From: Defluviitaleaceae bacterium
GTDB taxonomy: Bacteria > Bacillota > Clostridia > Lachnospirales > WRAX01
Direction: 5' to 3'
Assembly: GCA_009780415.1 (NCBI GenBank)
Contig: WRAC01000017.1
Span: forward strand, 1 to 50,776
Length of the DNA stretch: 50,776 bases
Numbering within the stretch: the first letter of the stretch is position 1; each line of letters begins with the position of its first letter. The notes beneath the pieces are model-generated. The model searched no databases and was not told the origin of the DNA. It saw only the letters and a program-made list of their open reading frames with translations. This document shows positions 4,581 through 41,855 of the stretch, piece by piece. Position numbers and translations under genes: made by a program.

Positions 4581-4604
4581 TTATAGAAATTAATAAAAAA
4601 GTTA

Positions 4605-4633
4605 TTGACAAATCATTTTCAATGCTGTATCAT
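4605..4633 (+). promoter_or_regulatory. Sigma-A promoter driving the T-box leader (TTGACA-17-TATCAT)
   Basis: TTGACA at 4605-4610, a 17-nt spacer, then TATCAT at 4628-4633. Confidence 0.6.
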
Positions 4634-4639
4634 ACTACA

Positions 4640-4927
4640 AAAGGTTATGACGGAGAAAAAGATATCTTAACTCAGTATGCCGGCGCGCCGGCAATTAGAG
4701 ATACCGCGGTTGGTGAAAGCGGGTGCTGACGGATATATAAATACACTCCTGAACCGATACCCTGAAAAATTCTGAGTAAGGGTGTACGGATGCCCGCCGT
4801 TATACGGGCAGGGATTGTTTGATCCCGTATGAGGGGCGGCTTGTTAAAAGCCGCAATCAGGGTGGTACCGCGAATATACTTTCGTCCCTGAGCAAGCTGT
4901 TTTTGCTCATGGCCGGAAGTTTTTTTA
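4640..4927 (+). promoter_or_regulatory. T-box riboswitch leader, probable tyrosine specifier (UAC)
   Basis: The conserved T-box sequence AGGGTGGTACCGCG matches the consensus exactly at 4859-4872. Stem I shows a GA/K-turn-like start (ATGACGGAG), an AGAGA box at about 4695, and a GGTGAAA distal-loop-like motif. A specifier loop AUAAAUACA sits immediately 5' of the helix-closing CUCC (4746-4749), which pairs with GGAG (4652-4655). This places UAC followed by A as the specifier. CAGGG of the T-box can pair with CCCUG of the terminator's 5' arm, giving an antiterminator. An intrinsic terminator lies at 4879-4927. Confidence 0.7.
4879..4927 (+). terminator. T-box attenuator terminator (imperfect ~13-bp stem plus U7)
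   Basis: CTTTCGTCCCTGAGC pairs with GCTCATGGCCGGAAG and is followed by TTTTTTT, directly upstream of the RBS AGGAGG. Confidence 0.55.
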
Positions 4928-4953
4928 TGCAATTAAACAAAGGAGGAAGTAAG

Positions 4954-9576: not shown

Positions 9577-10257
9577 ATGGGTTCAATTTCAAACGAAGTA
9601 AAAACGCAGGTACTGACGCAGGCGCTGCCTTACATCCAGCGTTATACCGGTAAGGTTATCGTCGTTAACTATGGCGGGAGCGCGGACGGTAAGCGCGAGA
9701 ACATCGATGCTTTGATGAGTGACCTTGTGCTGCTGGATACGATAAACGTTAAAGTTGTATTGGTTCACGAGGAATGCGGGGATGTAGCCGGAATGCTGGA
9801 GTTGTCCGCCGCTATTAACAAAGCCGGGGGCAAGGCCCTTGCTCTGTGCGGAGCGGATAAAGAAACGGTTGAAGGCGCGCTGGGACTGGGTTACATACCC
9901 GTTGTGGCGGCGATTGATTACGACAACGGCAAGGCCCTTAAAGGCAGCGCGGACAACACGGCGGCACGGATTGCCGGGGAGCTGAAAGCCGAAAACATGA
10001 TCGCCATTACCAATGTGCGCGGTGTCCTTAAAGACCCCTCGGACGACAGCACGCTGATTTCGGAGCTTTCTATCAGCGATGTGCCTTATTTGACCAAGCA
10101 GGGCGTTATCACCGGCGGCATGACTGAAAAAGTCGCTTCCTGTGTCGAAGCTATCCGCAGAGGCGTTAAAAAGGCGTTTATTATCGACGGAAACATAGCC
10201 CATGCCATACTTATTGAATTGTTCTCGGATGAGGGCATCGGCACAATGATTATTTAA
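9577..10257 (+). CDS. Amino-acid kinase family protein, degenerate acetylglutamate kinase (ArgB)-like
   Basis: The N-terminus LPYIQRYTGKVIVVNYGGSA and the C-terminal block ISGGMTEKV...AFIIDGNIAHAILIELFSDEGIGTMI align to ArgB. The HGGGPQ glycine loop is replaced by HEECGD. About 40 aa of the N-acetylglutamate lid region is absent. Total length is 226 aa. Confidence 0.7.
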   Translation: MGSISNEVKTQVLTQALPYIQRYTGKVIVVNYGGSADGKRENIDALMSDLVLLDTINVKVVLVHEECGDVAGMLELSAAINKAGGKALALCGADKETVEGALGLGYIPVVAAIDYDNGKALKGSADNTAARIAGELKAENMIAITNVRGVLKDPSDDSTLISELSISDVPYLTKQGVITGGMTEKVASCVEAIRRGVKKAFIIDGNIAHAILIELFSDEGIGTMII

Positions 10258-10271
10258 GGGAGGCGAAAACG

Positions 10272-11189
10272 ATGAGATTTTATCCAAAGCATTTTTTAAC
10301 CATGCAGGAACTGTCGGGCGAAGAGATTATTGAGCTGCTGAACATCGCCGACCAGTTAAAATACGAAAAAAAGAACGGCATACCCCATCCGCGCCTTGCG
10401 GGTAAGACTTTAGGCATGATATTCCAAAAATCCTCCACAAGGACGCGCATATCCTTTGAGGTGGGCATTTATCAGCTTGGCGGTACGGCTTTATTCCTCA
10501 GCCCAAATGATTTGCAAATCGGGCGCGGCGAGCCGCTGTCCGACACGGGCCGCTGTCTGGCGCGTTATCTGGACGGTATTATGATACGCACTTACGCCCA
10601 TGAGGATGTGGAACGCCTGACGGAATACGGTATACCCGTCGTAAACGGCCTTACGGATTACGCGCACCCCTGCCAGGTTCTGGCGGATTTAATGACCATA
10701 CGCGAGTATAAGAGCACGTTGAAGGGTCTGAAGCTGACGTTTATCGGCGACGGTAACAACATGGCAAATTCGTTGATTACGGGCTGTTTGAACGTTGGGA
10801 TGAGCATAAGCATAGCTTGCCCCAAGGGTTATGAGCCGCATGAAAAGGTGCTTGCCTATGCCGCCGGATTCGGCGATAAGTTTACGCTTACCGACAACAT
10901 TCAGAAGGCATGCGAGGGCTCCGATGTGCTGGTTACGGACGTTTGGGCGTCGATGGGCCATGAAGCCGAGGCCGCTAAACGGCTTGAGGCTTTCAAGGGT
11001 TATCAGATTAACGACAAAACCCTTTTCTACGCCAATGCAGAAGCCATGGTGCTGCACTGCCTACCCGCCCACAGGGGTGAGGAAATTACAGAGGAAGTGC
11101 TGGAACGCCACGCCGGTATGATTTTCGACGAGGCCGAAAACAGGCTTCACGCGCAAAAGGCTATTTTGATTAAACTTATGGAGAAGTAG
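10272..11189 (+). CDS. argF: Ornithine carbamoyltransferase
   Basis: Carbamoyl-phosphate motif STRTR, HPCQ, DVWASMG, HCLPAHRGEE, and a C-terminal FDEAENRLHAQKA. RBS AAGGGAGG. Confidence 0.88.
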   Translation: MRFYPKHFLTMQELSGEEIIELLNIADQLKYEKKNGIPHPRLAGKTLGMIFQKSSTRTRISFEVGIYQLGGTALFLSPNDLQIGRGEPLSDTGRCLARYLDGIMIRTYAHEDVERLTEYGIPVVNGLTDYAHPCQVLADLMTIREYKSTLKGLKLTFIGDGNNMANSLITGCLNVGMSISIACPKGYEPHEKVLAYAAGFGDKFTLTDNIQKACEGSDVLVTDVWASMGHEAEAAKRLEAFKGYQINDKTLFYANAEAMVLHCLPAHRGEEITEEVLERHAGMIFDEAENRLHAQKAILIKLMEK

Positions 11190-25434: not shown

Positions 25435-27810
25435 ATGAACACCAAGGCTTTACGGACGCTTGAGTTCGATAAGATAATAGAAATGCTTGCGGGCAAGGCG
25501 ATATCGCAGCCCGGAAAAGCGCTGGCACGTGAGCTGGTACCCGCCGCGGAGCTTTATGATATTGAGATAGGGCAAAAAGAAACCAGCGAAGCGATGCGCT
25601 ATATATTAAAAAACGGGTCGCTGCCGCTGGGCGGTATCAGGGATGTGGGGGCTTCCGCGAAACGCGCCGAGATGAACGGAATCTTGATGATTGAAGAGCT
25701 GATGCATGTGGCGGAGTTCCTGTACGTCTGCGGGAAGGCCGTAAACTACGCGAAGGAAGCGGAGCGGTCAGTTGCGTCTGACCGGATAGGCGATATGTTC
25801 GGACGAATCGTTACCTTGCCGCATTTGGCTAAAGAGCTGAACCGTTGCATATTAAACGAACAGGAACTTTCCGACGATGCCAGCCCCAGGCTTTCGGACA
25901 TACGTAAAAACATAAAAACCCAAAATGCCCGCGTGCGCGAGACGCTGAACTCCATCATCCATTCCCAGACATACAAGACAATGCTGCAAGACCCGGTAAT
26001 AACCATCAGAAACGGGCGCTTCTGCGTACCCGTCCGCGCCGAGCATAAAAGCTCCTTCCAAGGTATGGTACACGACCAGAGCGGTTCCGGCTCGACGCTG
26101 TTTGTTGAGCCGATGAGCGTTGTGTCCCTGAACAATAAGATCAAGGAGCTGGAGGCGGAGGAACGCGCGGAGATAGAGCGGATTTTACGCAAGCTGTCCG
26201 GCCTTGTGGCGGAGGATGCGCTGACGATTACAACCAATTCGGAAGTGCTGACGCATTTGGATTTTGTGTTTGCGAAGGCAGAGCTGTCTCTATCCATGAA
26301 CGGTTTCGAGCCTAAGTTCAACGAACGCGGCGTTATCAACCTTAAAAGGGCCAGACATCCGCTTTTGGACAAGGAAAAGGCCGTGCCGATAGACATCCGG
26401 CTGGGCGACGGGTTCACTATTCTTTTGATAACGGGGCCGAATACGGGCGGTAAAACCGTTGCTCTCAAAACACTGGGATTGTTCACGCTGATGGGCCATG
26501 CCGGCCTGCATATCCCCGCCGCGGAGAATCCCGAGCTGGCAGTGTTTGACGATGTTTTCGCGGATATTGGCGACGAACAGAGCATCGAACAGAGCCTAAG
26601 CACGTTTTCCGGGCATATGAGTAATATTGTGAAAATCCTTGATAAAGTTACTCCCTTCTCGCTGGTGCTGCTGGATGAGCTGGGCGCGGGCACAGATCCC
26701 ACAGAGGGCGCGGCTTTGGCGGTTGCCATAATTAAATTCCTGCATGATCGCAAAATACGTTCCGCCATAACCACACATTACAGCGAATTGAAGGTTTTCG
26801 GCTTGCAAACCGAGGGCATTGAAAACGCCGCCTGCGAGTTTGATGTTGAGAGCCTGCGGCCCACTTACCGGCTGCTTATCGGCATTCCGGGCAAGAGCAA
26901 CGCCTTCGCCATTTCCCGGCGGCTTGGGCTTACGGAGGATATCATAGAATCGGCCCGCGCGTTTTTGACCAGCGAGGACGAGCGGTTTGAGGATGTCATC
27001 ACCAACCTTGAGATCAGCCGCAAAACCGTTGAAATGGAGCAGGAACGCGCCGAGCGTTTCCGTCAGGAAGCCGAAAAGCTTAAACGCGACTATGAAAGCC
27101 AAAAGGCGAAGCTTGCGGAAAGCCGGGAGAAAATCCTTAAAGAAGCCCGCGACGAAGCTAAAAAGGCGACGGACGCGGCTAAAAAAGAGGTTGACCGCAT
27201 TATTAAGGAAACGCGTCAAATACAGGAAAGCGGCAGGAATATCAAGGAGCTTGAGGAAAAGCGCGGGGAACTGCGTGAAATGGCGGCGCAATTCGATCAG
27301 ACTGCAACGGAAACCGTTCCGCCGCCAAAGTATAAAAAAATTGAGCGTCCGTTAAAGCCGGGCGAACGGGTCTATATACATTCGTTATCCCAGCGCGGCG
27401 TTATTATCGCCGAGGCGGACTCGTCCGGCAGTATTATGGTTCAGGCCGGGATAATGAAGGTAAAAGTCGGCGTAAACGCCCTCTCCCTTGACGAATCCGC
27501 GCCCGCCGCGCCCAAAAACCCCGAACGCGCCTATTCCCTCAAGGGCGTTGCCGAGCGCAAGCGCAACATCTCCCCTACCCTGGACATACGCGGAAACACA
27601 TCGGACATGGCTTTTGATAAGATTGATTCATACCTAGGCGACGCGTATTTCGCGGGATTGCAAAACGTAACAATCCTCCACGGCAAAGGCACAGGGGCGT
27701 TACGCCACGCGGTTCAGGGATATTTGAAATCCCATCCGCATGTGAAAAAATACCGTGATGGCGCCTTCGGCGAGGGTGATTTAGGCGTTACTATTGTTGA
27801 GTTAAAATAA
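25435..27810 (+). CDS. mutS2: Endonuclease MutS2 (MutS domain-V ATPase plus C-terminal Smr domain)
   Basis: 791 aa. Walker A reads ITGPNTGGKTVALKTLG, with DELGAGTDP. A KOW-like segment is followed by a C-terminal Smr domain (LDIRGNTSDMAFDKIDSYL...ILHGKGTGALR). An extended -10 TGTTATAAT lies at 25397-25405. Confidence 0.9.
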   Translation: MNTKALRTLEFDKIIEMLAGKAISQPGKALARELVPAAELYDIEIGQKETSEAMRYILKNGSLPLGGIRDVGASAKRAEMNGILMIEELMHVAEFLYVCGKAVNYAKEAERSVASDRIGDMFGRIVTLPHLAKELNRCILNEQELSDDASPRLSDIRKNIKTQNARVRETLNSIIHSQTYKTMLQDPVITIRNGRFCVPVRAEHKSSFQGMVHDQSGSGSTLFVEPMSVVSLNNKIKELEAEERAEIERILRKLSGLVAEDALTITTNSEVLTHLDFVFAKAELSLSMNGFEPKFNERGVINLKRARHPLLDKEKAVPIDIRLGDGFTILLITGPNTGGKTVALKTLGLFTLMGHAGLHIPAAENPELAVFDDVFADIGDEQSIEQSLSTFSGHMSNIVKILDKVTPFSLVLLDELGAGTDPTEGAALAVAIIKFLHDRKIRSAITTHYSELKVFGLQTEGIENAACEFDVESLRPTYRLLIGIPGKSNAFAISRRLGLTEDIIESARAFLTSEDERFEDVITNLEISRKTVEMEQERAERFRQEAEKLKRDYESQKAKLAESREKILKEARDEAKKATDAAKKEVDRIIKETRQIQESGRNIKELEEKRGELREMAAQFDQTATETVPPPKYKKIERPLKPGERVYIHSLSQRGVIIAEADSSGSIMVQAGIMKVKVGVNALSLDESAPAAPKNPERAYSLKGVAERKRNISPTLDIRGNTSDMAFDKIDSYLGDAYFAGLQNVTILHGKGTGALRHAVQGYLKSHPHVKKYRDGAFGEGDLGVTIVELK

Positions 27811-31622: not shown

Positions 31623-32624
31623 ATGCGTGTTATAGTTAAGATAGTACTTCTATATGTTGTAATGATTATACTACTGACTTCATGCGGATTAAAAAATTAT
31701 GGCGGAGCGCCGTCCCCATCAAGCACCGATGCGATAATTACGCATACACCGGAACCCACTCCTACACCAGAACCCGCTCCGACTCCCGAACCGACCCCGG
31801 AGCCTACGCCGGAACCAACCCCAACCCCCGAACCCACGCCGTATACGGCTCCTGTGCTGAGCTTGCCCGAAGGTATGAATAACCCTTACAGATCAAGCTA
31901 TCCCAACGCTTTTAATGACGACGGCACGCTAAAGAATGACAGTTGCCAATCCGGTATGAGGCCGAATTACCATAATTTCCAGCCGCCTGTCGCCCACACG
32001 TATTTTGATATCAGGCAGTTTAACGGTTATTATTTGGGCGATTTAAGCGAAAGGGCCGTTTATCTAACCTTTGATAATGGCTACGAGAACGGATTCACTC
32101 CGATTATCCTTGATATTTTGAAGGAAAAGGGCGTGCATGCGGCGTTTTTTGTTACAAAGCCATATATACAGCAAGCCCCGGAGCTGTGTATACGCATGAT
32201 AGAAGAAGGGCATATTGTGGGTAATCATACCGTAAGGCACAGAAACAGCTCATCATTGACCGATGAGGAATTTATTTTCGAGTTAGAGGAAACGGCCCGG
32301 TTTTTCAAGGAAGTAACCGGATACGATATGCATCCCTATTTCCGCCCGCCGGGCGGCGAATACTCAGCCAGGATCTTGAGCCTTGCCAATGAATTGGGTT
32401 ATAAGACGATTTTCTGGAGCCTGGCTTATCTGGATTATGACGTTAATAACCAGCCGGGCAGGCAGGCCGCCTTCGACCGCGTTACATCAACGATACACAA
32501 CGGCTGTATAATACTCCTTCACGCCATTTCGCAGTCCAATACGGAAGCTTTGGGTGACATTATTGATTATATCCGGGAGCAGGGATTTGAGTTTAAGCCG
32601 CTGGATGACCTGGCAGATTGGTAA
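31623..32624 (+). CDS. Polysaccharide deacetylase lipoprotein (PdaA-like, delta-lactam-type de-N-acetylase)
   Basis: Lipobox LLTSCG. A Pro/Thr-rich linker. The NodB domain reads TFDNGYENGFTPIILDIL...HTVRH. Confidence 0.8.
   Translation: MRVIVKIVLLYVVMIILLTSCGLKNYGGAPSPSSTDAIITHTPEPTPTPEPAPTPEPTPEPTPEPTPTPEPTPYTAPVLSLPEGMNNPYRSSYPNAFNDDGTLKNDSCQSGMRPNYHNFQPPVAHTYFDIRQFNGYYLGDLSERAVYLTFDNGYENGFTPIILDILKEKGVHAAFFVTKPYIQQAPELCIRMIEEGHIVGNHTVRHRNSSSLTDEEFIFELEETARFFKEVTGYDMHPYFRPPGGEYSARILSLANELGYKTIFWSLAYLDYDVNNQPGRQAAFDRVTSTIHNGCIILLHAISQSNTEALGDIIDYIREQGFEFKPLDDLADW
31745..31845 (+). repeat. Imperfect tandem PT-linker repeat (CCNGARCCNACNCC units) encoding PEPTPTPEPAPTPEPTPEPTP
   Basis: Direct reading. 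Low-complexity coding repeat inside the PdaA-like gene. Confidence 0.6.
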
Positions 32625-32627
32625 TTA

Positions 32628-33284
32628 TTATATGGTGCCCAGTCCTTTTTTCAATAAATGTTTATATGTCGCCCATGAAATGTGCCGGCCTCCCATTTTT
32701 TCCAAATGCGCGGTGTGAAACTGGCAGTCGATAAACAGGAACCCTTCGTCGGATAGTTTTTGGCAAAGGCTGATTAACGCAAGCTTTGAGGCATTTGCGG
32801 TTTTTGAGAACATGCTTTCTCCAAAAAAACATTTACCGATGATCACGCCGTACAAACCGCCGGCAAGCTCTAACCCGTCGTAAACGCCTGTACAGTGAGC
32901 ATATCCCAATTCAAACAGCTTTATATACGCCGATTCCATTTCGCTGGTTATCCATGTCTCGTTTTCCCGCATTGTACGGCAGTTATGTATTATTTGATTA
33001 AAATTAATGTTAAATTTGATTTCCAAGGATGTTTTTGACATTTCCTTTTTCATGCTGCGTGATATGTGGACATCTTGCGGAAAAATAACAAAGCGTTCTT
33101 TCGGGCACCACCATTTTATTTCCTCACCCGGATTATACCAGGGGAAAATGCCGTTTGAGTATGCGCTTAACAGCCGCCCGGCGCTCAAATCGCCGCCTAC
33201 GGCCAGCAGACCGTTATCGCTGGCAAGCTCCGGCGGAGGGAAGATATGTAATTTATCGGATAACAGAAAAATCGGCATAAACAC
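32628..33284 (-). CDS. aat: Leucyl/phenylalanyl-tRNA--protein transferase
   Basis: FPPPELASDNGLLAVGGDLSAGRLLSAYSNGIFPWY is the classic L/F-transferase N-terminus. 218 aa. Confidence 0.85.
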   Translation of the reverse strand: MFMPIFLLSDKLHIFPPPELASDNGLLAVGGDLSAGRLLSAYSNGIFPWYNPGEEIKWWCPKERFVIFPQDVHISRSMKKEMSKTSLEIKFNINFNQIIHNCRTMRENETWITSEMESAYIKLFELGYAHCTGVYDGLELAGGLYGVIIGKCFFGESMFSKTANASKLALISLCQKLSDEGFLFIDCQFHTAHLEKMGGRHISWATYKHLLKKGLGTI

Positions 33285-33347
33285 ATTATATAATAAAGAG
33301 CATTATTCAACCACAAAAAACGCAAAAAAACACAAAAAATAAAAAAA

Positions 33348-34265
33348 ATGTGTTATACTTTAAGCATGGACGGATTACGAAAGAGAATGCTTCTGATATT
33401 TAACCCCAATGCCGGGCAGCAAAGGTTTCCGGCTTATCTTTATGATGTTGTGAACATTTTTACGCTGGCGGGTTTTCTTGTTACGGTACTGCCTACGCGG
33501 GCGAACGGCTGCGCGGGCGATGCCATTGCCCGTTACGCGGAAGATCATGAGTATGTGGTCTGCTCCGGCGGGGACGGTACAATCGGCGAATGCATCGACG
33601 CGCTTCTGCAACTTGAGAAACGCCCGGTTTTCGGGGTTATTCCCTCGGGTACCGCCAATGATTTTGCCGTGTCGCTTGGTATTCCGAAGGATATTATTTC
33701 GGCTGCCGGTATAATCACTGGCGGTAACGCGAAGGCGTTGGACATCGGACGGTTTGGGAGCCGTCATTTTTCATACGTAGCCGGTTTTGGTATTTTTACC
33801 GACGTAGCTTACTCAACCCCGCAAAACCTTAAAAACGTGCTGGGAAGCCTTGCTTATTTGCTTGAGGGAATAAAACGCCTGGGATCAATTAAAACCTACG
33901 GCTGCGGGTTTATGCTTGACGGAGAAGCCGTAAACGGCGGCTTTATCCTGGGCCTTGTGGCGAACACGCATTCCGTGGGCGGTTTCAGGCTGCCAGGTAC
34001 CATTGATGTGCGGATGGATGACGGCATGTTTGAGGTGATATTGTTGAAAAGGCCCAGAACGTTAAGGGACCACCAACAGATCATAGCATCCCTCCGCAAA
34101 CAGGAAAATGGTTCGGATTTATTAATTATTCGGAAGGCAAGCAAGGTGGAATTCAGCTCCCCGATGCCGGTGGCATGGACGCTGGACGGCGATTTTGGCG
34201 GTGAATGCAAAGATGTTGTCATCGAAAATGTTCCCCATGCCATAAATGTTATGGTTCCGGGATAA
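33348..34265 (+). CDS. Diacylglycerol/lipid kinase family protein (DagK/YegS-like)
   Basis: The LLIFNPNAGQ start region and the VVCSGGDGTIGE motif. The start is ambiguous among ATGs 33348, 33366 and 33387, none with a strong RBS. A TGTGTTATACT extended -10-like element overlaps 33350-33360. Confidence 0.7.
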   Translation: MCYTLSMDGLRKRMLLIFNPNAGQQRFPAYLYDVVNIFTLAGFLVTVLPTRANGCAGDAIARYAEDHEYVVCSGGDGTIGECIDALLQLEKRPVFGVIPSGTANDFAVSLGIPKDIISAAGIITGGNAKALDIGRFGSRHFSYVAGFGIFTDVAYSTPQNLKNVLGSLAYLLEGIKRLGSIKTYGCGFMLDGEAVNGGFILGLVANTHSVGGFRLPGTIDVRMDDGMFEVILLKRPRTLRDHQQIIASLRKQENGSDLLIIRKASKVEFSSPMPVAWTLDGDFGGECKDVVIENVPHAINVMVPG

Positions 34266-34273
34266 AATAACAC

Positions 34274-34302
34274 TTGATAAAAATAATCAACTATGCTATG
34301 AT
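34274..34302 (+). promoter_or_regulatory. Sigma-A promoter (TTGATA-17-TATGAT) for the leader of the MutS2-paralog/ABC operon
   Basis: TTGATA at 34274-34279, a 17-nt spacer, then TATGAT at 34297-34302. Confidence 0.55.
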
Positions 34303-34329
34303 AATAAAAAATTGAAGGGTGGTTTATTG

Positions 34330-34365
34330 ATGTCGGTTCTGTCTGTTACGGTGATGATCAACTAA
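34330..34365 (+). CDS. Candidate leader peptide MSVLSVTVMIN (uORF)
   Basis: The RBS is 7 nt upstream. The ORF lies inside the attenuator-like leader. It is very short, so low confidence. Confidence 0.35.
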   Translation: MSVLSVTVMIN

Positions 34366-34484
34366 ATAATAGTTGTAAGGAACGCATAAGCATTAGCTTA
34401 TTTTGTTGTTCCTTTAAAACACTGCCTAACAGACTGCTCGGAACATCAATATATGCCCTTTTTTTGTAGTATATTGAGAGATAT

Positions 34485-34546
34485 GCCCACGGGAGCATTC
34501 TGCACTTTTTATGGTGTGGTTGTGTTTTCGTGGGCTTTTATTTTGT
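34485..34546 (+). terminator. Leader terminator (GCCCACG-long loop-CGTGGGC plus T4AT4)
   Basis: A 7-bp GC stem closes a structured interior. It is followed by TTTTATTTTG immediately before the RBS. Confidence 0.45.
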
Positions 34547-34559
34547 AAAGGAGATTATC

Positions 34560-36482
34560 ATGAACCACTTAACAACGCTTGAATTTGACAAGATATTAGA
34601 AAAACTTGCCCATTGCGCGGTTTCTGAAACGGTGAAGGAGCGCTGCCTTACGTTAAATCCCGCAAAGAGCTTACCGAAAGCCGAACGCCGCCAGTGCGAA
34701 ACAACACAGGCCAAGCAAATAATTGAACAGACGGGAACGCCGCCCCTTGCGGCTATGACCGATTTACAAAAGATTATCGGGCTATTGGGTGCGGATGCTA
34801 TGCTTATCCCGGAACAGCTTGCCCATGTTATGGCTTTCATTACATCTTGCCGGCGCATGGTTACGTATATGCAAAAAGCCCGGTTTACAGATGTTGACGT
34901 GGCATTTTACGGCGGGTCGTTTATAGATTTGTCGCATGTTGAGGATGAAATAAACCGTTGTATACGCGGTATACAGGTGGACGACCGGGCTTCCCAGCGT
35001 CTATATGACTTGCGCAGGGGTATTGAGATCAAAGGCGAACAGATAAAGGCAAAACTGGATCAAATGCTGAGGAAAAACAGGGATTGCTTTTCGGAAGGCT
35101 TCGTTGCCGTCCGAAACGGGCGCTATACCCTTCCGGTTAAAAGGGAATTCAAAAGCAGGATAGAGGGTGTTATGGTTGAATTATCAAACACCGGCGGCAC
35201 TTGTTTTATTGAACCCGCATCTGTAAGGAAACTGCAGGACGAGCTGGGGGAGCTGCATATCGAGGAGGACAATGAGGTGCGCCGCATCCTTTACACGCTC
35301 ACTGCTTTGGTGCATGATTTTCTGCCATCCATCCGCGTAAATATCGATGCCATGGAAACATTGGATTTCCTTTTCGCTAAGGCTAAATTGAGCATGGACA
35401 TGAAAGCCTCCCCCGTCCGGTTGATTGAAGGCAGGGAAATGCGGATTCTGTCGGCGCGGCATCCGCTGTTGCGTGAAGAAATTGCTGTGCCGTTAGACTT
35501 TGCATTGGGTGGGGATTGGACGGGCGTTGCCATAACCGGGCCAAATACCGGGGGTAAGACGGTGGCTCTTAAAACGGTGGGGTTGCTATCGCTAATGGCT
35601 CAAAGCGGGTTGCATATTCCTGCTAACGATAAAAGCATAATATGTATGTTTGACGCGGTTTTGTGCGATGTAGGCGATGGGCAGAGCATTACGGAGAATC
35701 TTTCCACTTTTTCGTCGCATATGACAAATATAATAGGTATTTTACGGGCATCCACTGAAAATTCCCTTGTCCTCCTTGATGAGCTGGGTTCGGGAACCGA
35801 TCCGGCGGAGGGCATGGGCATTGCGATGGCGATTCTGGAAGCTTTGCTGGTAAAACGCTGTTTGTTTACCGTAACTACCCATTATCCCGAAATAAAGGAT
35901 TTCTCGGCGTATACTGACGGTTTGATAAACGCGAGGATGGCTTTTGATAAGGAAAGTCTGATGCCGTTATATAGGCTTGAAATAGGCGAGGCCGGGGAAA
36001 GCTGCGCTTTGTATATTGCCGAAAGGCTGGGTATGCCTGTTGATTTATTAAATCGCGCGCGGGAGATAACGTATGCGGGCGCGCACAGTGCGCCCCTGCG
36101 GATGCCGCCGGCAATGGAAAGATTAATCCCGGTCGTACCTCTGGAATTGGCGGAGGAAGCCGCCGAACCCGTTCCGGTCCCGCGCAGTCAACGGTTTAAT
36201 ATCGGCGACAGCGTCACCGTGTATCCGCAGAAAGAAATAGGGATCGTATACGCCCGCGCCAATGAAAAAGGGGAAGTCGGCGTTCAAGTAAAGGGCAGAA
36301 AGCGGTTGGTGAACCATAAACGGATAAAGCTGAAAATAGCGGCAAGCGAATTATATCCCGACGATTACGACATGTCCATTGTTTTTGACAGCGTGGAGAA
36401 CCGGAAGGCTTGGCGTTTAATGGATAAGAAGCATGTTGAGGGGAATGTCGCCGTCATTAAAAAAGGGGTGAATGAGAGATGA
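34560..36482 (+). CDS. MutS2-family paralog lacking the Smr nuclease domain (MutS domain-V ATPase plus KOW-like C-terminus)
   Basis: RBS AAGGAG. 640 aa. Reads ITGPNTGGKTVALKTVGLLSLMAQSGLHIPA, with DELGSGTDP. A KOW-like block (FNIGDSVTVYPQKEIGIVYARANEKGEVGVQVKG) is present, but there is no Smr domain. Its stop overlaps the next gene's start as ATGA. Confidence 0.85.
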   Translation: MNHLTTLEFDKILEKLAHCAVSETVKERCLTLNPAKSLPKAERRQCETTQAKQIIEQTGTPPLAAMTDLQKIIGLLGADAMLIPEQLAHVMAFITSCRRMVTYMQKARFTDVDVAFYGGSFIDLSHVEDEINRCIRGIQVDDRASQRLYDLRRGIEIKGEQIKAKLDQMLRKNRDCFSEGFVAVRNGRYTLPVKREFKSRIEGVMVELSNTGGTCFIEPASVRKLQDELGELHIEEDNEVRRILYTLTALVHDFLPSIRVNIDAMETLDFLFAKAKLSMDMKASPVRLIEGREMRILSARHPLLREEIAVPLDFALGGDWTGVAITGPNTGGKTVALKTVGLLSLMAQSGLHIPANDKSIICMFDAVLCDVGDGQSITENLSTFSSHMTNIIGILRASTENSLVLLDELGSGTDPAEGMGIAMAILEALLVKRCLFTVTTHYPEIKDFSAYTDGLINARMAFDKESLMPLYRLEIGEAGESCALYIAERLGMPVDLLNRAREITYAGAHSAPLRMPPAMERLIPVVPLELAEEAAEPVPVPRSQRFNIGDSVTVYPQKEIGIVYARANEKGEVGVQVKGRKRLVNHKRIKLKIAASELYPDDYDMSIVFDSVENRKAWRLMDKKHVEGNVAVIKKGVNER

Positions 36483-37459
36483 ATGTTATTACAACGCAAG
36501 GTTTATCCAAAATATATAAGCGATTTGAAAAAGAAGCCGGGTTAAAGGGTAGTGTAAAAAGCCTGTTTAACCGGAAATTCACAGAAAAACACGCGGTGTC
36601 AGCTTTCGACTTAAACATCGAAAAAGGCGAGTTTGTAGGCCTTATCGGGCCGAATGGAGCGGGGAAAACCACCCTTGTAAAAATGCTTACGGGTATTATC
36701 GCCCCTACATCAGGGGAGATATCGGTTCTGGGATATTATCCCAATAAGCTGGAAAACGCGTTCAAAAAGCAATACGCGGTGGTTATGGGGCAAAAGAGCC
36801 AGCTTTTCTTCGAGTTGACCCCAACCGACACCTTCCGCCTGTTTAAGGAATTATACGCCATACCGGATGACCTTTATAAGCGTAATGTCGGTTATTTTGT
36901 CGAATTATTCGGCGTATCCCAATTCCTTAATGTCCAGGTGCGGACTTTATCTCTGGGCGAACGCATGAAGATGGAATTAATCGTTGCCCTTCTTCACAGC
37001 CCCGGCGTTCTGTTCCTGGATGAACCCACCATCGGGCTTGACGCCGCGTCCCAAAGGCAAATGCGCCTGTTCCTAAAGGAGGTCAACCGTGAGAAAGGCA
37101 CCACTATTTTGTTGACATCGCATTATATGGAGGATGTGCGCAGTCTTTGCCCGCGGAGCATCGTTATCGGCGGCGGGGCAAAAATCTATGACGGTTCAAC
37201 GGATAACTTGTTTGACTCTTATCAGACCCGTAAAAAAATAACCCTCGCCTTTGATACGGAAACCGATTTTACGGTTCCGTACAACTGTGAGCTTATTGAT
37301 AAAAGCCCGTACAAGGTAGTATTTATGGCGCCTAAAGACGGCGATGCCCGTTTAATTTCAACACTGGCGCAGGAATATACGCCCATTGACATCTCCGCCG
37401 AAGAAGAGGATATCGGCGCGGTGGTGGAACGGATTTACGCGGGGGGGATGAACCGTTGA
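36479..37459 (+). CDS. ABC transporter ATP-binding protein (ABC-2 type) with C-terminal extension
   Basis: Walker A GLIGPNGAGKTT. Signature LSLGERMKM. Walker B LFLDEPTIGLD. An ~80-aa C-terminal domain follows. Confidence 0.85.
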   Translation: MNVITTQGLSKIYKRFEKEAGLKGSVKSLFNRKFTEKHAVSAFDLNIEKGEFVGLIGPNGAGKTTLVKMLTGIIAPTSGEISVLGYYPNKLENAFKKQYAVVMGQKSQLFFELTPTDTFRLFKELYAIPDDLYKRNVGYFVELFGVSQFLNVQVRTLSLGERMKMELIVALLHSPGVLFLDEPTIGLDAASQRQMRLFLKEVNREKGTTILLTSHYMEDVRSLCPRSIVIGGGAKIYDGSTDNLFDSYQTRKKITLAFDTETDFTVPYNCELIDKSPYKVVFMAPKDGDARLISTLAQEYTPIDISAEEEDIGAVVERIYAGGMNR

Positions 37460-38250
37460 AAAAATATATGGCGTTTTCCAAAATATTTTTCAAAGCGCAG
37501 ATTATATACCGTTTTGATGTAGCCGTAACGGCTATTGAGGCCCTTGGAAGGATACTTTTCGCATGGCTGATATGGGGGGCTGTTTTTGCCGGGCGTGACG
37601 TGGTTGGCGGTTTTACATTCCGTTCCATGCTGCTTTATTATGTTGTAAGCTCCTGTATCGCCACATTGGATATATGCTTCGGGGTAAGCAGCGAAATCAA
37701 CCACGAAGTCAGGAACGGTTTATATACAAAGTTCATGGTCATCCCAATCAACCAGCAGTTATACTGGCTGTCGAAAAATCTTGGCGTCGTCTCATATCTG
37801 GCGATGTTTGTGCTGCCCGTGGCGCTTATAAGCGGCTGGCTTTTCGGGGCTGGCGGTTATGCCGGCCAGCCCGCCGCCGCAATCCTTGGGCTGCTCATGA
37901 TTCCTTTGGGGCTGGCCTTTATGGTTACATTCCACTTTTTTATTGGGATACATGCGTTTAAGTTCCATGATGTGGGGTTTTTCATATATTTCCAGTCAGC
38001 TTTGGTACAGTTCACCCAAGGCGGAGTAATTCCAATTAACCTCCTGCCCGATACCGTATTAAACATCCTGCGCCTGCTTCCCTTTCCTCATGTTATTTAC
38101 ACGCCGTCGATGCTGCTTATCGGCGGAATGGATTTTAGGGAGGGTTTATTCTCAGCCGGGGTGCTGATTGTTTGGTTAGCAGGTATGTCGGCGGCGGCTC
38201 AATTCGCATACAAACGGCTGCGGATAAAATATGACGGGGTGGGTATATGA
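37456..38250 (+). CDS. ABC-2 family transporter permease
   Basis: 6 predicted TM helices, about 264 aa. TTG/ATG start overlaps the upstream stop. Confidence 0.7.
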   Translation: MKKYMAFSKIFFKAQIIYRFDVAVTAIEALGRILFAWLIWGAVFAGRDVVGGFTFRSMLLYYVVSSCIATLDICFGVSSEINHEVRNGLYTKFMVIPINQQLYWLSKNLGVVSYLAMFVLPVALISGWLFGAGGYAGQPAAAILGLLMIPLGLAFMVTFHFFIGIHAFKFHDVGFFIYFQSALVQFTQGGVIPINLLPDTVLNILRLLPFPHVIYTPSMLLIGGMDFREGLFSAGVLIVWLAGMSAAAQFAYKRLRIKYDGVGI

Positions 38251-39038
38251 AAAGGAATATTAGATTCATCTTACTGTTGATAAAATTAAAGCTCTCCCAT
38301 ATGATGGTGTTCCGGCTGAGTTTTTTTATCGGTTTTTTTGCGGACGGAATGTTGTTTGCCGTGCAATTACTGACCTTTCAGATTATATTCGGCCAAGTAG
38401 ATTCTATAGGGAACTGGGGTCAGGGCGAAATGTTAATATTTATCGGTACTTTCTCCATGATTAATGGTTTAAATATGTTCATTTATTTTTTCGGGGTTTC
38501 AAATATCCCCCGGCTTATCAGAACCGGGGGGCTCGACCTTTATATAACCAAACCGGTAAACCCATTGCTTCGCCTTACATTTGAAAACGTAAATCTGGGC
38601 AGCGCGCCGCTGCTTATTTTCAGCGGCGTGATCGTTGCATACGGGGTATCGGTGTTAGGGGCGGAGGTAACTGCGCCTCTGTTGACCGGGTATATCACGC
38701 TTACGCTGCTTATGACGCTGCTCTATTATGACATGGAAGTCATACTCCGTACCCTACCGTTCTTCTTCATCGGAACAAGCGCCATAGACCGCTTGGAAGG
38801 CGAGTTAATCATGTTGAATTTCAAAGTCCCGGGAGTGATTTATCAGGGCGTATTTAAAATCATTTTCTATTTCATCTTACCCTACGGCATAATGGCTACC
38901 GTGCCCACACAGGCACTTTCCCGTACATTAACCGCAGGCGGTTTGCTTCAAGCTTTAGCCGTTGTTGTTTTCTTCACGGTATTTGCCTTGTGGTTTTGGA
39001 AATTCGGGCTTAAACATTACAAAAGCGCCAGCAGTTAA
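38247..39038 (+). CDS. ABC-2 family transporter permease (second subunit)
   Basis: 6 predicted TM helices, 263 aa. ATGA overlap with the upstream gene. Confidence 0.7.
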   Translation: MKRNIRFILLLIKLKLSHMMVFRLSFFIGFFADGMLFAVQLLTFQIIFGQVDSIGNWGQGEMLIFIGTFSMINGLNMFIYFFGVSNIPRLIRTGGLDLYITKPVNPLLRLTFENVNLGSAPLLIFSGVIVAYGVSVLGAEVTAPLLTGYITLTLLMTLLYYDMEVILRTLPFFFIGTSAIDRLEGELIMLNFKVPGVIYQGVFKIIFYFILPYGIMATVPTQALSRTLTAGGLLQALAVVVFFTVFALWFWKFGLKHYKSASS

Positions 39039-39051
39039 CGTCGAAACGCTT

Positions 39052-40518
39052 TCACGCCGTAATACCTCTGTTCGCCCGCTCCGCCGCAACCTCCTCCGGG
39101 GTTTTGACGCGCCGGCGTACGGCGCCTTTATAACCATCGTTGGTTGGCAGCAGATTGCCTTCGGCAAAGCGCCCTTTCGCATCGGTTATGGCCTGCTTGT
39201 ATTGCGGCAGCCATTTCTCCCCGGCGATAAGCATCTCGTCAATCATCTGCCAAACCTCCGGGGGATTGCAAACCGCCCCGGTCAGCGGATCCATTAACGC
39301 GGCTTGTTTAAGGAGGTTCGCGTCGCCGGAAACAGCCGCCTCCACAGCCAGTTTCTGCACCCAGACGGACTGGGAGCAAACCGCCGCGCAGGGAAGGGGC
39401 AAATTACCCACTTTGGGGGCCGCTACGCCGTTACCGTCCACATAGCAGGGGACCTCAACCACGCACTCGTCCGGCAGGTTTGTTATACAGCCCTCGTTCA
39501 TTACGTTAAAATGCCCGCGATAGACGCGCCCGGTTTCCAGCCCTTCCATAATATAGGAGCAATGTTCGCCGCCGCGCTGGCTGCCGTCGTATATTTTCGG
39601 CGGTTCTTGCAGAATTTTAGGATACTCTGTCTCAAACCAATCCCGTTCTTCACGCGTCACGCGGAGGTAACCGCCCGTTTCACCGTGGATCCAGCTGTTC
39701 AGGTTTATCCACCGGGAGATTTCGTCCGGGCGTTTGCGGTACCAGGCCACATATTCGGAGAGATGCCCGTTGGATTCGGTGGAATAATAACCGAATCTCC
39801 GTAGCATATCAATGCGCACTTTTTCCTCCTGGCTGAAAACAGGGTGGCGTTCAAAGGCTTCCAAGAGTTTATCAAGCTGTTCCATGCCCTTGTGCTTTAC
39901 CGATATATACCAGGTTTGGTGGTTTATTCCGGCGCAGATAAAATCCAGTTCGTTATGGGGAATGCCCAGCGCTTCGGCAATTTGGCGCTCCCCGTGAATT
40001 TCACCGTGGCAAAGCCCTATCGTGCGTACGCCGCCGTATTTATTACATGCCCAGGTTGCCATCGCGTTGGGGTTTGAATAGTTCAGCATAATGGCCCCCG
40101 GTTCCGCAACCTCACGGATGTCCTTGCAAAAATCAAGCATTGACGCGATTACGCGCTGTCCGTACATAATGCCGCCAGTGCAGAGGGTATCGCCCACGCA
40201 TTGGTCAATACCGTATTTAAGCGGTATTTCAATATCCGTTTCAAACCCCTCAAGCCCGCCAACACGCACCAAATTAACAATATAACGAGCGCCACGGAAC
40301 GCTTCCCTGCGATCTGCGGTGGATTGGATTCTTGTCCTTATTCCGTTTGCCTCAAGGTCTCGCTGGCATAAACCCGTCACTTTCTCAAGGTTACCCCCGT
40401 TAATATCCGTAAACGCGATCTCAATATCACGAAATTCAGGCACGGACATGATATCCGTAAACAGGTTGCGCGTAAATACAAGGCTTCCCGCGCCTATTAC
40501 CGCTATCTTAAAACTCAT
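39052..40518 (-). CDS. Glycoside hydrolase family 4 (NAD+/Mn2+-dependent; alpha-galacturonidase/alpha-glucosidase-like)
   Basis: The N-terminal Rossmann region reads MSFKIAVIGAGSLVFTRN. The GH4 region reads NYSNPNAMATWAC...GLCHG. An AAGGAG RBS precedes ATG 40518. The track's TTG extension to 40554 is rejected. Confidence 0.8.
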   Translation of the reverse strand: MSFKIAVIGAGSLVFTRNLFTDIMSVPEFRDIEIAFTDINGGNLEKVTGLCQRDLEANGIRTRIQSTADRREAFRGARYIVNLVRVGGLEGFETDIEIPLKYGIDQCVGDTLCTGGIMYGQRVIASMLDFCKDIREVAEPGAIMLNYSNPNAMATWACNKYGGVRTIGLCHGEIHGERQIAEALGIPHNELDFICAGINHQTWYISVKHKGMEQLDKLLEAFERHPVFSQEEKVRIDMLRRFGYYSTESNGHLSEYVAWYRKRPDEISRWINLNSWIHGETGGYLRVTREERDWFETEYPKILQEPPKIYDGSQRGGEHCSYIMEGLETGRVYRGHFNVMNEGCITNLPDECVVEVPCYVDGNGVAAPKVGNLPLPCAAVCSQSVWVQKLAVEAAVSGDANLLKQAALMDPLTGAVCNPPEVWQMIDEMLIAGEKWLPQYKQAITDAKGRFAEGNLLPTNDGYKGAVRRRVKTPEEVAAERANRGITA

Positions 40519-40532
40519 TCCGACAGCTCCTT

Positions 40533-41855
40533 TTACTTGTACTTGGGCATCCAACCCCCGTGCGCGTCAATCAGCTCATCCACCATAGAGCGGATATCGT
40601 CGAGAGAAAGCTCCGCGGCGGTAAGGGGATCCAGCATCGCGGCATGGTAGATATGCTCTTTTTTCAAGGTTACCGCCGCTTCAATCGTTATCAGGTGCAC
40701 GTTAACATGCGTCATGTTCATAGCGGCAAGCTGCACAGGGAGTTTGCCCGCGTAACAGGGGTTTATGCCATAATTGTCCACCATGCAGGGCACTTCGACG
40801 CAAGCCTCGCGCGGCAGGTTTTCGACTAGCCCGCCATGGTTCAGCACATTGCCGCCGATCTTGTACGGAATGCCCGTAATAAGAGCTTCCATGATATAAG
40901 ACGCGTATTCCATGGAGCGTTTGTGCTCCAGCGTGTCCTTCCTTGTCAGGCCCTCGTATTCCTTTGCCCATCCGGCGGCCTGGTGTATGCAGCGGCGGGG
41001 ATATTCGTCCAGCGGGATGTTAAACTTTTCGATAAGCTCCGGATAACGGGATTTTATGTAATACGGGTTGTACTCGGCGTTATGCTCGCTGGACTCCGTA
41101 CAGTAGTAGCCCAGTTTTTCTATATAATCGTAACGCACCATATCCCAGTGTTTTTCGCCGGCGTTTTTGGCGGCGGCGCGCTTTCTTATCTCGGGGTACA
41201 AGTCGCTGCCGTTCTTGTCCCTAATCTCAAGCAGCCAGCCCATGTGGTTTATCCCGGCTATCAGCTCCTTGCGGCCTTCCAGCTTATCATGCATTTCCAG
41301 AAATTCAAGCAAATGCTTCGAACAGCATTGAACGCTGTGGCACAAACCGATGGTTTTAACACCGGTATACCGCTGCATAAAGCCGGTGAGTATGGACATG
41401 GGGTTTGTATAATTCAAAAACCAAGCGTTGGGACAGACCTCCTCCATATCCCGCGCGAAATCCGCCAGTACGGGGATGGTACGCAGCCCGCGCATTATGC
41501 CGCCAATGCCCAATGTATCCGCGATGGTTTGGCGCAGGCCATATTTCTTGGGGATTTCAAAATCGGTGATTGTGCATGGGTCGTACAGACCGACTTGGAT
41601 GGCGTTCACCACGAAATCCGCGCCGCGTAAGGCGTCCTTGCGTTTTTCCACGCCCAGATAGGTTTTAATGGATGCCTTCCCGCCCAAACCCTTATTTATG
41701 GCGGATAGAATCGTTTCGCTCTCTTTCAGGCGCTGAGCGTCTATGTCATAAAGGGCGATTTCGCTCTCCGCCAGCACAGGCGAACACATGCAGTCGCCAA
41801 TAACATTGCGGACGAATATCGTGCTGCCCGCACCCAAAAAAGTAATTTTTGCCAT
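40533..41855 (-). CDS. Glycoside hydrolase family 4 (second paralog)
   Basis: Reads MAKITFLGAGSTIFVRN...NYTNPMSILTGF...GLCHS. 440 aa. Confidence 0.8.
   Translation of the reverse strand: MAKITFLGAGSTIFVRNVIGDCMCSPVLAESEIALYDIDAQRLKESETILSAINKGLGGKASIKTYLGVEKRKDALRGADFVVNAIQVGLYDPCTITDFEIPKKYGLRQTIADTLGIGGIMRGLRTIPVLADFARDMEEVCPNAWFLNYTNPMSILTGFMQRYTGVKTIGLCHSVQCCSKHLLEFLEMHDKLEGRKELIAGINHMGWLLEIRDKNGSDLYPEIRKRAAAKNAGEKHWDMVRYDYIEKLGYYCTESSEHNAEYNPYYIKSRYPELIEKFNIPLDEYPRRCIHQAAGWAKEYEGLTRKDTLEHKRSMEYASYIMEALITGIPYKIGGNVLNHGGLVENLPREACVEVPCMVDNYGINPCYAGKLPVQLAAMNMTHVNVHLITIEAAVTLKKEHIYHAAMLDPLTAAELSLDDIRSMVDELIDAHGGWMPKYK

Follow-up and report, generated by a model that had tools for sequence, protein, structure and literature searches.

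A candidate leader-peptide attenuator family in Clostridia and its cargo, an Smr-less MutS2 paralog and an ABC-2 exporter

Contig WRAC01000017.1 of a Defluviitaleaceae bacterium (GenBank assembly GCA_009780415.1; Bacillota, Clostridia, Lachnospirales), referred to below as the window over its full 50,776 nt, carries a four-gene operon that opens with a MutS2 paralog lacking the Smr domain and continues with the three genes of an ABC-2-type exporter. The operon is preceded by a leader of about 250 nt that holds an 11-codon upstream open reading frame (uORF) and an intrinsic terminator directly before the ribosome-binding site (RBS) of the paralog gene (Table 1). We find that this leader belongs to a conserved family shared by several kinds of cargo gene, and that its uORF is constrained at the level of the encoded peptide. 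With moderate confidence, we read the locus as an inducible translation-stress operon that is switched by the leader peptide. Resistance modules induced by ribosome stalling are well established; what is new here is the attenuator family and the MutS2 paralog as its cargo.

The anatomy of the leader suggests how such a switch could work. RNA polymerase would start near 34309, and a ribosome would at once translate the uORF. If this ribosome finishes and leaves, region 1, which lies within the uORF, would pair with region 2, the hairpin at 34485-34535 would form, and transcription would stop at the U-tract before the paralog RBS. A ribosome stalled on the uORF would cover region 1, with a trailing ribosome perhaps queuing behind it; region 2 would then pair with GGAGCATTCTG (region 3) of the terminator 5′ arm, no terminator would form, and all four coupled genes would be transcribed. 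Because the paralog RBS lies outside the hairpin, control would be transcriptional rather than exerted by masking of the RBS. The MutS2-type ATPase, with its putative splitting core and KOW-like ribosome-docking barrel, would rescue the blocked ribosomes, and the DUF990 ABC exporter would expel the compound that had blocked them, in all likelihood a natural product directed at the ribosome. The cargo found behind the leader in various genomes, namely the exporter, a GNAT acetyltransferase, a major facilitator superfamily (MFS) transporter, and two ribosome-associated NTPase paralogs, is a classic mix of efflux, modification, and rescue, which points to a ribosome-targeting compound as the inducer.

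Translation of the uORF is supported by a comparison of 46 distinct homologous uORFs of the leader type found in the window, which we call type A. Every one of the 46 is 11 codons long, with the consensus M-S-V-[L/S]-S-V-x-V-x-x-N-stop; M1, S2, and N11 are invariant, and V3, V6, and V8 are kept in 89%, 98%, and 85%, respectively. Synonymous codons occur at S2, V3, L/S4, and V6 (Leu4 is encoded by CTG, CTA, TTA, or TTG, and Ser4 by AGY or TCG), all three stop codons are used, and a Shine-Dalgarno (SD)-like site stands upstream in 43 of the 46. The leader ORF, with an SD of its own, is under selection as a translated sequence. Two other elements of a ribosome-dependent attenuator are also in place: an intrinsic terminator lies between the leader ORF and the regulated gene, and a segment of the ORF pairs with the antiterminator strand, as an anti-antiterminator does. 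At the same distance upstream of the uORF as the promoter-like site of the window, related loci have TTGACA/TATAAT boxes.

The predicted fold of the window leader has a free energy of -86 kcal/mol (z = -7.8 versus shuffles), and in it helix 1:2 extends over the uORF SD and start codon; the duplex energies are -15.9 for 1:2, -13.3 for 2:3, and -30.7 kcal/mol for 3:4. Covariation was counted on an alignment of 41 leaders (A2, 656 columns) with a structure that we specified by eye. For the terminated (OFF) structure, 88.5% of cells are paired versus 40-44% with the partners slid, a difference that is inflated because the structure was derived from the same sequences; the compensatory counts are less affected, and 25 of 51 pairs have changed on both sides. 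None of 500 shuffles reaches the observed values. Helix 1:2 is paired in 88% of cells and has 4 compensatory pairs, such as the replacement of GTTA/TRAC by GTAA/TTAC in the Pseudobacteroides group and a G-C to A-U exchange. Covariation is strong in the outer stem of the terminator and in an upstream hairpin, H4, and the arms of the small hairpin around the uORF stop codon, CAACT/AGTTG, are swapped for CTCTA/TAGAG in some loci. Helix 2:3 is paired in 92.9% across the leaders, and its strands are near-invariant, as is ACCTRACAGACTGCTTC within region 2 across genera; such near-invariance fits a segment that may have to match either of two partners. Masking the uORF and truncating the RNA ahead of the 3′ arm makes helix 2:3 the predicted fold in 16 of the 41 leaders; without masking, it is predicted in 3 of 41.

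H4 gives most type A leaders a second terminator-like hairpin. It consists of GCGYGGCAAGG...CTTGYCRCGC and a U-run, sits between region 2 and the main terminator (window 34441-34484 versus A2 columns 246-278), and is possibly a first terminator.

The same leader stands in front of the paralog in many Clostridia. We compared 80 species-level genome loci that carry the paralog, from Oscillospiraceae, Desulfosporosinus/Peptococcaceae, Syntrophomonas, Christensenellaceae, Pseudobacteroides, Ruminiclostridium, and termite-gut metagenome-assembled genomes, and searched the 69 paralog loci with at least 300 nt of upstream DNA using two nhmmer profiles, one built from the 41 type A leaders and the other from termite-gut relatives (type B). 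A leader is present upstream of 67 of the 69, with 58 of type A and 9 of type B. The type A profile matches the window once only, over 34312-34563 (E 2e-38). In most genera, the 100 nt before the paralog RBS hold nearly the same long hairpin and U-tract, and the leader alignment is conserved from the promoter through the RBS over dozens of genera, a degree of conservation that is far beyond chance. An earlier note, made from the window sequence by itself, had pointed to a leader of about 250 nt with a uORF and a terminator abutting the RBS, and this observation is borne out well beyond the window. Rfam has no family for window positions 33000-40000 (E<=1), and for a well-conserved leader from another genome (L013; E<=10) it returned noise alone, with E values of 0.3-0.8 and scores far below gathering thresholds.

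The leader is also found where the paralog is absent. In L082, L086, L097, L115, L117, L125, L126, L148, and L158 (L numbers denote the loci compared), a type A leader ends 1-25 nt before the start of an ABC ATPase gene, and the uORFs in front of such paralog-free ABC-2 operons include MSVLSVMVSVN and MSTVSVMVIIN, each followed by a stop codon. Type B leaders precede other ABC-2 operons as well (L093, L094, L095, L099, and L112). Scanning for any SD-preceded short ORF located the type B uORFs. In type B, uORF codons 6-8 (GGTATCGGTG) pair with CCGCATACC just past the stop codon, the hairpin encloses the 3′ end of the uORF and its stop codon, and two terminators, each a hairpin and U-tract, come after it. 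From these features, the type B leader seems to follow the same logic as type A with another sequence. Type B belongs to termite-gut Clostridia, including the paralogs of L001-L010, and its 11-codon uORF reads M-S-x-x-x-V-S-V-x-x-[T/A]-stop, with some GTG starts.

Downstream of the paralog, several partners recur on the same strand, and beyond them the neighborhood is unconserved in the 80 loci. In 14 of 80 genomes, the gene directly after the paralog codes for a GNAT acetyltransferase of about 202 amino acids (aa; Pfam Acetyltransf_1/7/9), and most of these genes overlap the paralog by 4 nt (L013 at 9929-10537, L014, L016-L018, L021, L024, L027, L029, L030, L035, L036, L039, and L041); this linkage occurs in only one half of the paralog tree. 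Two Syntrophomonas loci (L031:4439-5623 and L033:10168-11352) have an MFS_1 transporter gene directly 3′ of the paralog. In two Desulfosporosinus genomes (L068:9938-11002 and L077), the MutS2 paralog is followed by an RsgA-like ribosome-biogenesis GTPase paralog (Pfam RsgA_GTPase, 6.5e-48), and metagenome contig L131 has such a GTPase gene (4454-5233) after the leader and before the ABC-2 genes. L010 has a different ABC-2 pump downstream of the paralog. Taken as a set of sequences, the leader appears to define a regulon whose cargo is the paralog by itself, the paralog joined by a GNAT, MFS, RsgA-like GTPase, or ABC-2 partner, or ABC-2 without the paralog.

The linkage between the paralog and the exporter is looser than the window suggests. 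ABC-2 genes follow the paralog in 9 of 81 loci, patchily distributed; among the 80 fetched loci, orthologues of the ATPase (58-69% identity) and of both permeases are immediately downstream in 8, several with a -4 overlap. These loci, among them Pseudobacteroides cellulosolvens ATCC 35603 and Acetanaerobacterium elongatum, fall at no fewer than five separate positions in a neighbor-joining tree of the paralog (at least 5). The closest relatives of the window paralog, at loci with 60-67% identity and in a 78%-identical protein on a 7.5-kb contig, are without ABC-2 linkage. Approached from the transporter side, 80 metagenome loci have orthologues of permease 2, and in 24 of these the sequence before the ATPase gene extends to 700 nt or more; the paralog is upstream in 2 of the 24 and downstream of permease 2 in two further loci. 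The latter are the termite-gut contigs L088 (2532-4403) and L112 (7793-9649), where the order is reversed, with ABC-2 first and the paralog 13-20 nt past permease 2. ABC-2 linkage is a minority arrangement from both sides; the leader, and not the gene pair, is the constant element, and four genes as an obligatory unit were rejected from both directions. We take the paralog and the exporter to be cargoes of a single regulon that can replace each other or be combined, not a fixed complex. The earlier note had taken the four genes for one tightly coupled unit and had looked to co-occurrence in relatives for support; the coupling holds in the window, and the co-occurrence recurs across the tree in both gene orders, but the four-gene unit is not conserved.

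The first gene of the operon encodes a second MutS2-family protein that keeps the domain V ATPase, as the earlier note had it. The paralog scores 568 bits against NCBIfam TIGR01069 (mutS2, cutoff 400), covering model positions 4-511 of 790 only, and its sole Pfam match is MutS_V (6e-38). Among solved structures, it is closest to the Bacillus subtilis MutS2 chains in complex with ribosomes (7qv3, 8qpp, and 8r55), with an E value of 2e-106 across residues 4-505. The Walker A motif GPNTGGKT, the Walker B residues DE, and the STFSSH and TTHY motifs are unchanged in 49 homologues, and the protein has the core/clamp and domain V ATPase of MutS2 with intact Walker and signature motifs. A canonical housekeeping MutS2 is encoded in the same genome (Table 1), and residues 4-501 of the paralog are 42% identical to it. 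An alternative start of the paralog at GTG 34530 was rejected, as it lies inside the terminator and the homologues start at ATG.

Absence of the C-terminal Smr domain, also stated in the earlier note, was confirmed and extended to the family. Pfam finds neither Smr nor MSSS in the paralog, also when the threshold is relaxed to E<=1 for the final 120 aa, and comparison of the conserved tail with the Smr of the window's own MutS2 by hhalign in local, low-mact, and global modes found no similarity (E 0.45). An ordinary MutS2 with a cryptic Smr domain, which the earlier note had named among the outcomes that would undo its proposal, can be rejected on these grounds, and a likeness seen by eye between the tail segment NVVIIKEG and the Smr strand IIHGKG was dropped. 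A profile of the C-terminal barrel and tail matched 309 representative clusters among 1.84 billion proteins; in all matches listed, this module is the end of the protein, and full-length members have 630-756 aa. Because the module ends the protein in every listed match, loss of Smr is a trait of a distinct, moderately sized family and not an assembly artifact.

A further loss in the paralog, which had escaped the earlier note, is that of the long coiled-coil lever found in MutS2 between ATPase and KOW. TIGR01069 positions 512-790 are unmatched, and the place of the ~130-residue lever of canonical MutS2 is taken by a variable, Pro-rich linker of about 36 aa (residues 508-543) that is predicted to be disordered (predicted local distance difference test, pLDDT, <50). 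In an AlphaFold model for which 49 sequences were aligned (mean pLDDT 77.9), the core and ATPase are confident and the tail is of low confidence; a 5-strand barrel is predicted at residues 551-593 with a pLDDT of about 82-85. Residues 541-640 were modeled separately and fold-searched against the PDB. The top match of the barrel (E 1.5e-3, probability 1.0) is 8r55_z, a KOW/SMR fragment from the structure of B. subtilis MutS2 bound to a collided disome, ahead of the KOW domains of NusG and Spt5 and then of Tudor/PWWP barrels, and hhalign aligns the barrel with the MSSS/KOW segment of canonical MutS2 in a weak match (E 8e-4, probability 24%). These weak but consistent matches suggest that the C-terminus is KOW-like, and the earlier note's assignment of it survives at that strength.

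The conserved tail, AASELYPDDYDFSIIFDSVENRKARH...GN, occupies residues 594-640 (window 36339-36479) and has Y599, P600, Y603, D604, D610, R615, and K616 invariant. Pfam has no match for it.

The three exporter genes are joined to the paralog and to one another by 4-nt overlaps: ATGA at 36479-82, where the paralog stop meets the ATPase start as the earlier note had described, TTGA at 37456-59, and ATGA at 38247-50, with an SD-like run before each start. The same note had given both permeases identical overlaps; the length is right, and the letters are right for permease 2, but permease 1 has TTGA. Its TTG start has a G-rich SD, GGGGGGGA, whereas no SD precedes the other possible start, ATG 37468. 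The two permeases are matches to PF06182 (ABC2_membrane_6, formerly DUF990) at 1.5e-14 and 1.8e-34, respectively, and the ATPase is DrrA-like at 1.3e-54, under the NCBIfam cutoff. One ATPase and two distinct PF06182 membrane subunits in one operon are the composition of TCDB family 3.A.1.141 (Ethyl Viologen Exporter), a family of DUF990 transporters typified by EvrABC (PMC5417439). A search of PDB sequences with the permease profile found no relative. PADLOC defense-system models matched neither the paralog nor the permeases and recognized in the ATPase only generic ABC-ATPase similarity; an anti-phage defense reading was dropped, as PADLOC gave nothing specific.

Table 1. Features of the operon, its leader, and the housekeeping MutS2 gene in the window
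Feature	Position	Strand	Details and basis
Sigma-70-type promoter-like site	34274..34302	+	TTGATA-17-TGnTATGAT; 10/12 matches, extended -10
Type A leader RNA, candidate ribosome-dependent transcription attenuator	34310..34559	+	~250 nt; profile match, fold
uORF SD site GAAGGGTGG	34314..34322	+	read from sequence
11-codon uORF, MSVLSVTVMIN-stop	34330..34365	+	homologous uORFs
Region 1, GTCTGTTACGGTG	34341..34353	+	uORF codons 4-8; 5′ strand of anti-antiterminator helix; pairs with 34420-34434 in minimum free energy fold
Small hairpin CAACT...AGTTG	34359..34375	+	uORF stop codon in loop; 87% paired
Variable stem-loop H2	34377..34415	+	6/7 basal pairs changed on both sides
Region 2, CACTGCCTAACAGACTGCTCG	34420..34440	+	partners: region 1, or (34430-34440) terminator 5′ arm
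Intrinsic terminator	34485..34544	+	arms 34485-34505 and 34514-34535; U-tract 34536-34544
Region 3, GGAGCATTCTG	34492..34502	+	conserved, within terminator 5′ arm
Paralog RBS, AAGGAG	34548..34553	+	3 nt past U-tract
Smr-less, lever-less MutS2 paralog	34560..36482	+	640 aa, ATG start
Parts of the paralog	residues 1-505; 508-543; 546-593; 594-640		core/clamp + ATPase; disordered linker; putative KOW-like barrel; conserved 47-aa tail
ABC-2-type (DrrA-like) ATP-binding subunit	36479..37459	+	326 aa; ATGA overlap with paralog
Permease 1, DUF990 / ABC2_membrane_6	37456..38250	+	~263 aa; TTG start, TTGA overlap
Permease 2, DUF990 / ABC2_membrane_6	38247..39038	+	~263 aa; ATGA overlap
Canonical housekeeping MutS2	25435..27810	+	791 aa; MutS_V + MSSS/KOW + Smr

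Two tandem family-4 glycoside hydrolase genes on the - strand (39052-40554 and 40533-41855) converge on the operon; 13 nt separate the permease 2 stop from the first glycoside hydrolase stop, with no clear terminator between them. Upstream lie a leucyl/phenylalanyl-tRNA-protein transferase gene (32628-33284, -) and a DAGK/YegS-type lipid kinase gene (33348-34265, +), neither of which is kept beside the paralog in other genomes. Further upstream, 31623-32624 encodes a lipoprotein-like polysaccharide deacetylase with a long (E/T)P repeat linker (PEPTPTPEPAPTPEPTPEPTPEPTPTPEPTP).

Among known systems, rli80-hflXr of Listeria monocytogenes appears to be the closest analogue. There, a second copy of a housekeeping ribosome-splitting factor is preceded by a leader with a translated ORF of 14 codons, an anti-antiterminator, an antiterminator, and a terminator; ribosomes that stall on this leader switch the gene on, with lincomycin and erythromycin as inducers, and the product makes the cell resistant to drugs that target the ribosome (PMC6310831). 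The window operon would share with it a specialized second copy of a splitting NTPase, a leader ORF with a terminator, and a housekeeping copy in the same genome. It differs in having a MutS2-type ABC ATPase in place of the HflX GTPase, another leader and a peptide without RLR, and cargo that is often cotranscribed with an exporter or an acetyltransferase.

For MutS2 itself, the B. subtilis protein is the reference: KOW and SMR recruit it to collided ribosomes, disomes are split without mRNA cleavage, the ATPase is the critical domain, deletion of SMR or mutation of KOW has modest effects, and deletion of mutS2 gives hypersensitivity to chloramphenicol, tetracycline, and erythromycin (PMC10897456). 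The earlier note had started from the premise that Smr supplies mRNA cleavage in this organism, which these data contradict; since SMR deletion is modest in its effect and the ATPase is critical, a splitter without Smr becomes more plausible. The paralog resembles B. subtilis MutS2 (RqcU) in its core/clamp and ATPase, its catalytic motifs, and a putative KOW-like barrel in the equivalent position, and differs from it in the missing lever and Smr, an extra conserved 47-aa tail, and a candidate attenuator instead of constitutive expression. Plant plastid MutS2A also lacks Smr, yet is required against erythromycin/chloramphenicol stalling (10.1101/2025.09.02.673837). It too is an Smr-less paralog beside an Smr-containing copy; unlike the clostridial protein, it arose in an independent duplication of cyanobacterial origin and is nuclear-encoded without attenuator control or a transporter link.

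On the exporter side, bmrB-bmrCD of B. subtilis places an ABC exporter under a ribosome-mediated transcription attenuator (PMC4191407). Together with msrDL-msrD (PMC10314930), it offers a precedent for leader-peptide attenuation of an exporter or resistance factor, with translation inhibitors as the signal. BmrCD, however, is a type I heterodimeric transporter and not ABC-2/DUF990, its leader peptide and RNA are unrelated, and no rescue factor is coregulated. EvrABC (PMC5417439) has the same composition as the window exporter, one DrrA-like ATPase with two different DUF990 membrane subunits; its regulation differs, and the family assignment of the window permeases is by Pfam PF06182 alone. A literature search of incomplete coverage found no paper on a bacterial Smr-less MutS2 paralog, its leader, or its regulon, which is absence of evidence only and agrees with the earlier note in not recognizing a described system.

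Several observations weigh against reading the locus as a translation-stress operon. Helix 2:3, on which read-through would depend, has changed on both sides in 1 of its 10 pairs only; it is conserved but not proven by covariation, and the masked fold of the window's own leader does not give it, because the still-free SD segment competes for pairing. Unbiased RNAalifold on the full gappy alignment recovers H4 and the base of the terminator only and no helix 1:2, an outcome that neither confirms nor contradicts that helix. The window leader has lost the first hairpin and U-tract (H4) of most type A leaders, of which only GCCCTTTTTTTG is left, and the uORF is without a recognized arrest motif such as RLR. 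On the protein side, the KOW evidence is weak (E about 1e-3), and because the coiled-coil lever that positions KOW/SMR in B. subtilis MutS2 is gone, the paralog may engage ribosomes differently or not at all. The sole characterized substrate of the DUF990 exporter family is ethyl viologen, which is no ribosome inhibitor (PMC5417439).

Part of this evidence can be read in other ways. MutS2 proteins have reported DNA roles, in DNA binding and the suppression of homologous recombination (PMC3200294 and PMC4739419), a further point against ribosome rescue. The paralog might accordingly act on DNA, in anti-recombination or on branched DNA, in an operon answering DNA-damaging or redox-cycling cationic toxins of the viologen or intercalator type that the exporter would expel, with the leader reporting general stress: the only characterized DUF990 transporter exports ethyl viologen (PMC5417439), and the paralog is without the two parts that MutS2 uses on the disome, the lever and Smr. 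We consider this unlikely. A translated uORF attenuator senses the ribosome and not DNA, the same leader has an RsgA-like ribosome GTPase paralog as another cargo, the retained C-terminal barrel best matches the KOW of ribosome-bound MutS2, and for most of the rescue activity in B. subtilis the ATPase core is sufficient (PMC10897456). The uORF could also belong to an amino-acid-supply attenuator, which would stall at Ser/Val/Leu codons when charged tRNA is low and so serve a starvation response rather than one to an inhibitor. Its peptide is rich in Val, Ser, Leu, and Ile, as ilv-type leader peptides are, and the 1:2 / 2:3 / 3:4 layout is that of trp- or ilv-type attenuators. There are no single-codon runs in it, however, and its position-specific conservation, invariant C-terminal Asn, and fixed 11 codons look like an arrest or sensor peptide; the cargo holds no biosynthetic or amino-acid-transporter gene but a MutS2 paralog, DUF990, GNAT, MFS, and an RsgA-like GTPase. 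We judge a starvation response to be rather improbable.

Little credence is likewise due to a metabolite- or protein-binding, riboswitch-like leader in which the short ORF is incidental or modulatory. The leaders are long (230-570 nt), have covarying hairpins (H2 and H4) that a simple attenuator does not need, and are very highly conserved in nucleotide sequence in regions 2 and 3. Such an element would not account for selection on the uORF at the amino-acid level, its invariant length, interchangeable stops, and strong SD, or for a uORF that, in type A and type B alike, contains region 1 of the key helix, and no Rfam riboswitch matches. A physical machine, in which the paralog docks on the transporter or clears ribosomes translating the permeases and coupling is obligatory, would explain the 4-nt overlaps in the window and several other loci and the recurrence of the juxtaposition in both gene orders. 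Against it, about 88% of paralogs have no adjacent ABC-2, the majority of ABC-2 operons are without the paralog, the linkage is missing in the nearest relative (78% identity), and the paralog is coupled as tightly to GNAT elsewhere, which makes such a machine very improbable. We keep the inducible translation-stress operon as our reading. Relative to the earlier note, which had proposed a module of ribosome rescue plus efflux responsive to translation stress or antibiotics, the observation is confirmed and the interpretation is partly supported: the leader is of a translation-sensing type and its cargo (ABC-2, GNAT, MFS, and RsgA-like GTPase) fits, and comparison across genomes strongly favors both this leader and the pairing of rescue with efflux, but the four-gene unit is not conserved.

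A bolder version can be put forward tentatively, and we hold it to be less probable than the translation-stress operon as such. The paralog may represent a new class of inducible resistance or tolerance factor, a dedicated splitter that would be the MutS2 counterpart of HflXr, the uORF may be a drug-specific arrest sensor, and the whole may be a Clostridia-wide resistance regulon. A class of peptidyl-transferase-centre inhibitors stalls the ribosome after Ser/Ala/Thr-X, and an inducer of this kind is a possibility, as it could hold the ribosome exactly over region 1. The uORF is one ribosome footprint long, and a ribosome that stalls close to its stop codon leaves the SD accessible; because of this, a disome might form on the leader and the paralog might itself reset the switch, in a collision-sensing feedback.

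The genes of this family are now annotated as endonuclease MutS2 / DNA mismatch repair protein MutS, a label that our analysis corrects. If the proposed reading is true, MutS2-type splitting would join HflXr and ARE-ABCF as an inducible, dedicated answer to ribosome-targeting compounds, and it would be common among Clostridia of the gut, the termite gut, and sediments, whose resistance biology has received little study. The attenuator family, absent from Rfam and with ~70 examples in two variants, would serve as a marker for further translation-stress genes. Natural Smr-less, lever-less variants would also test which MutS2 domains are needed for collision recognition and splitting, a point debated between two structural studies in B. 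subtilis.

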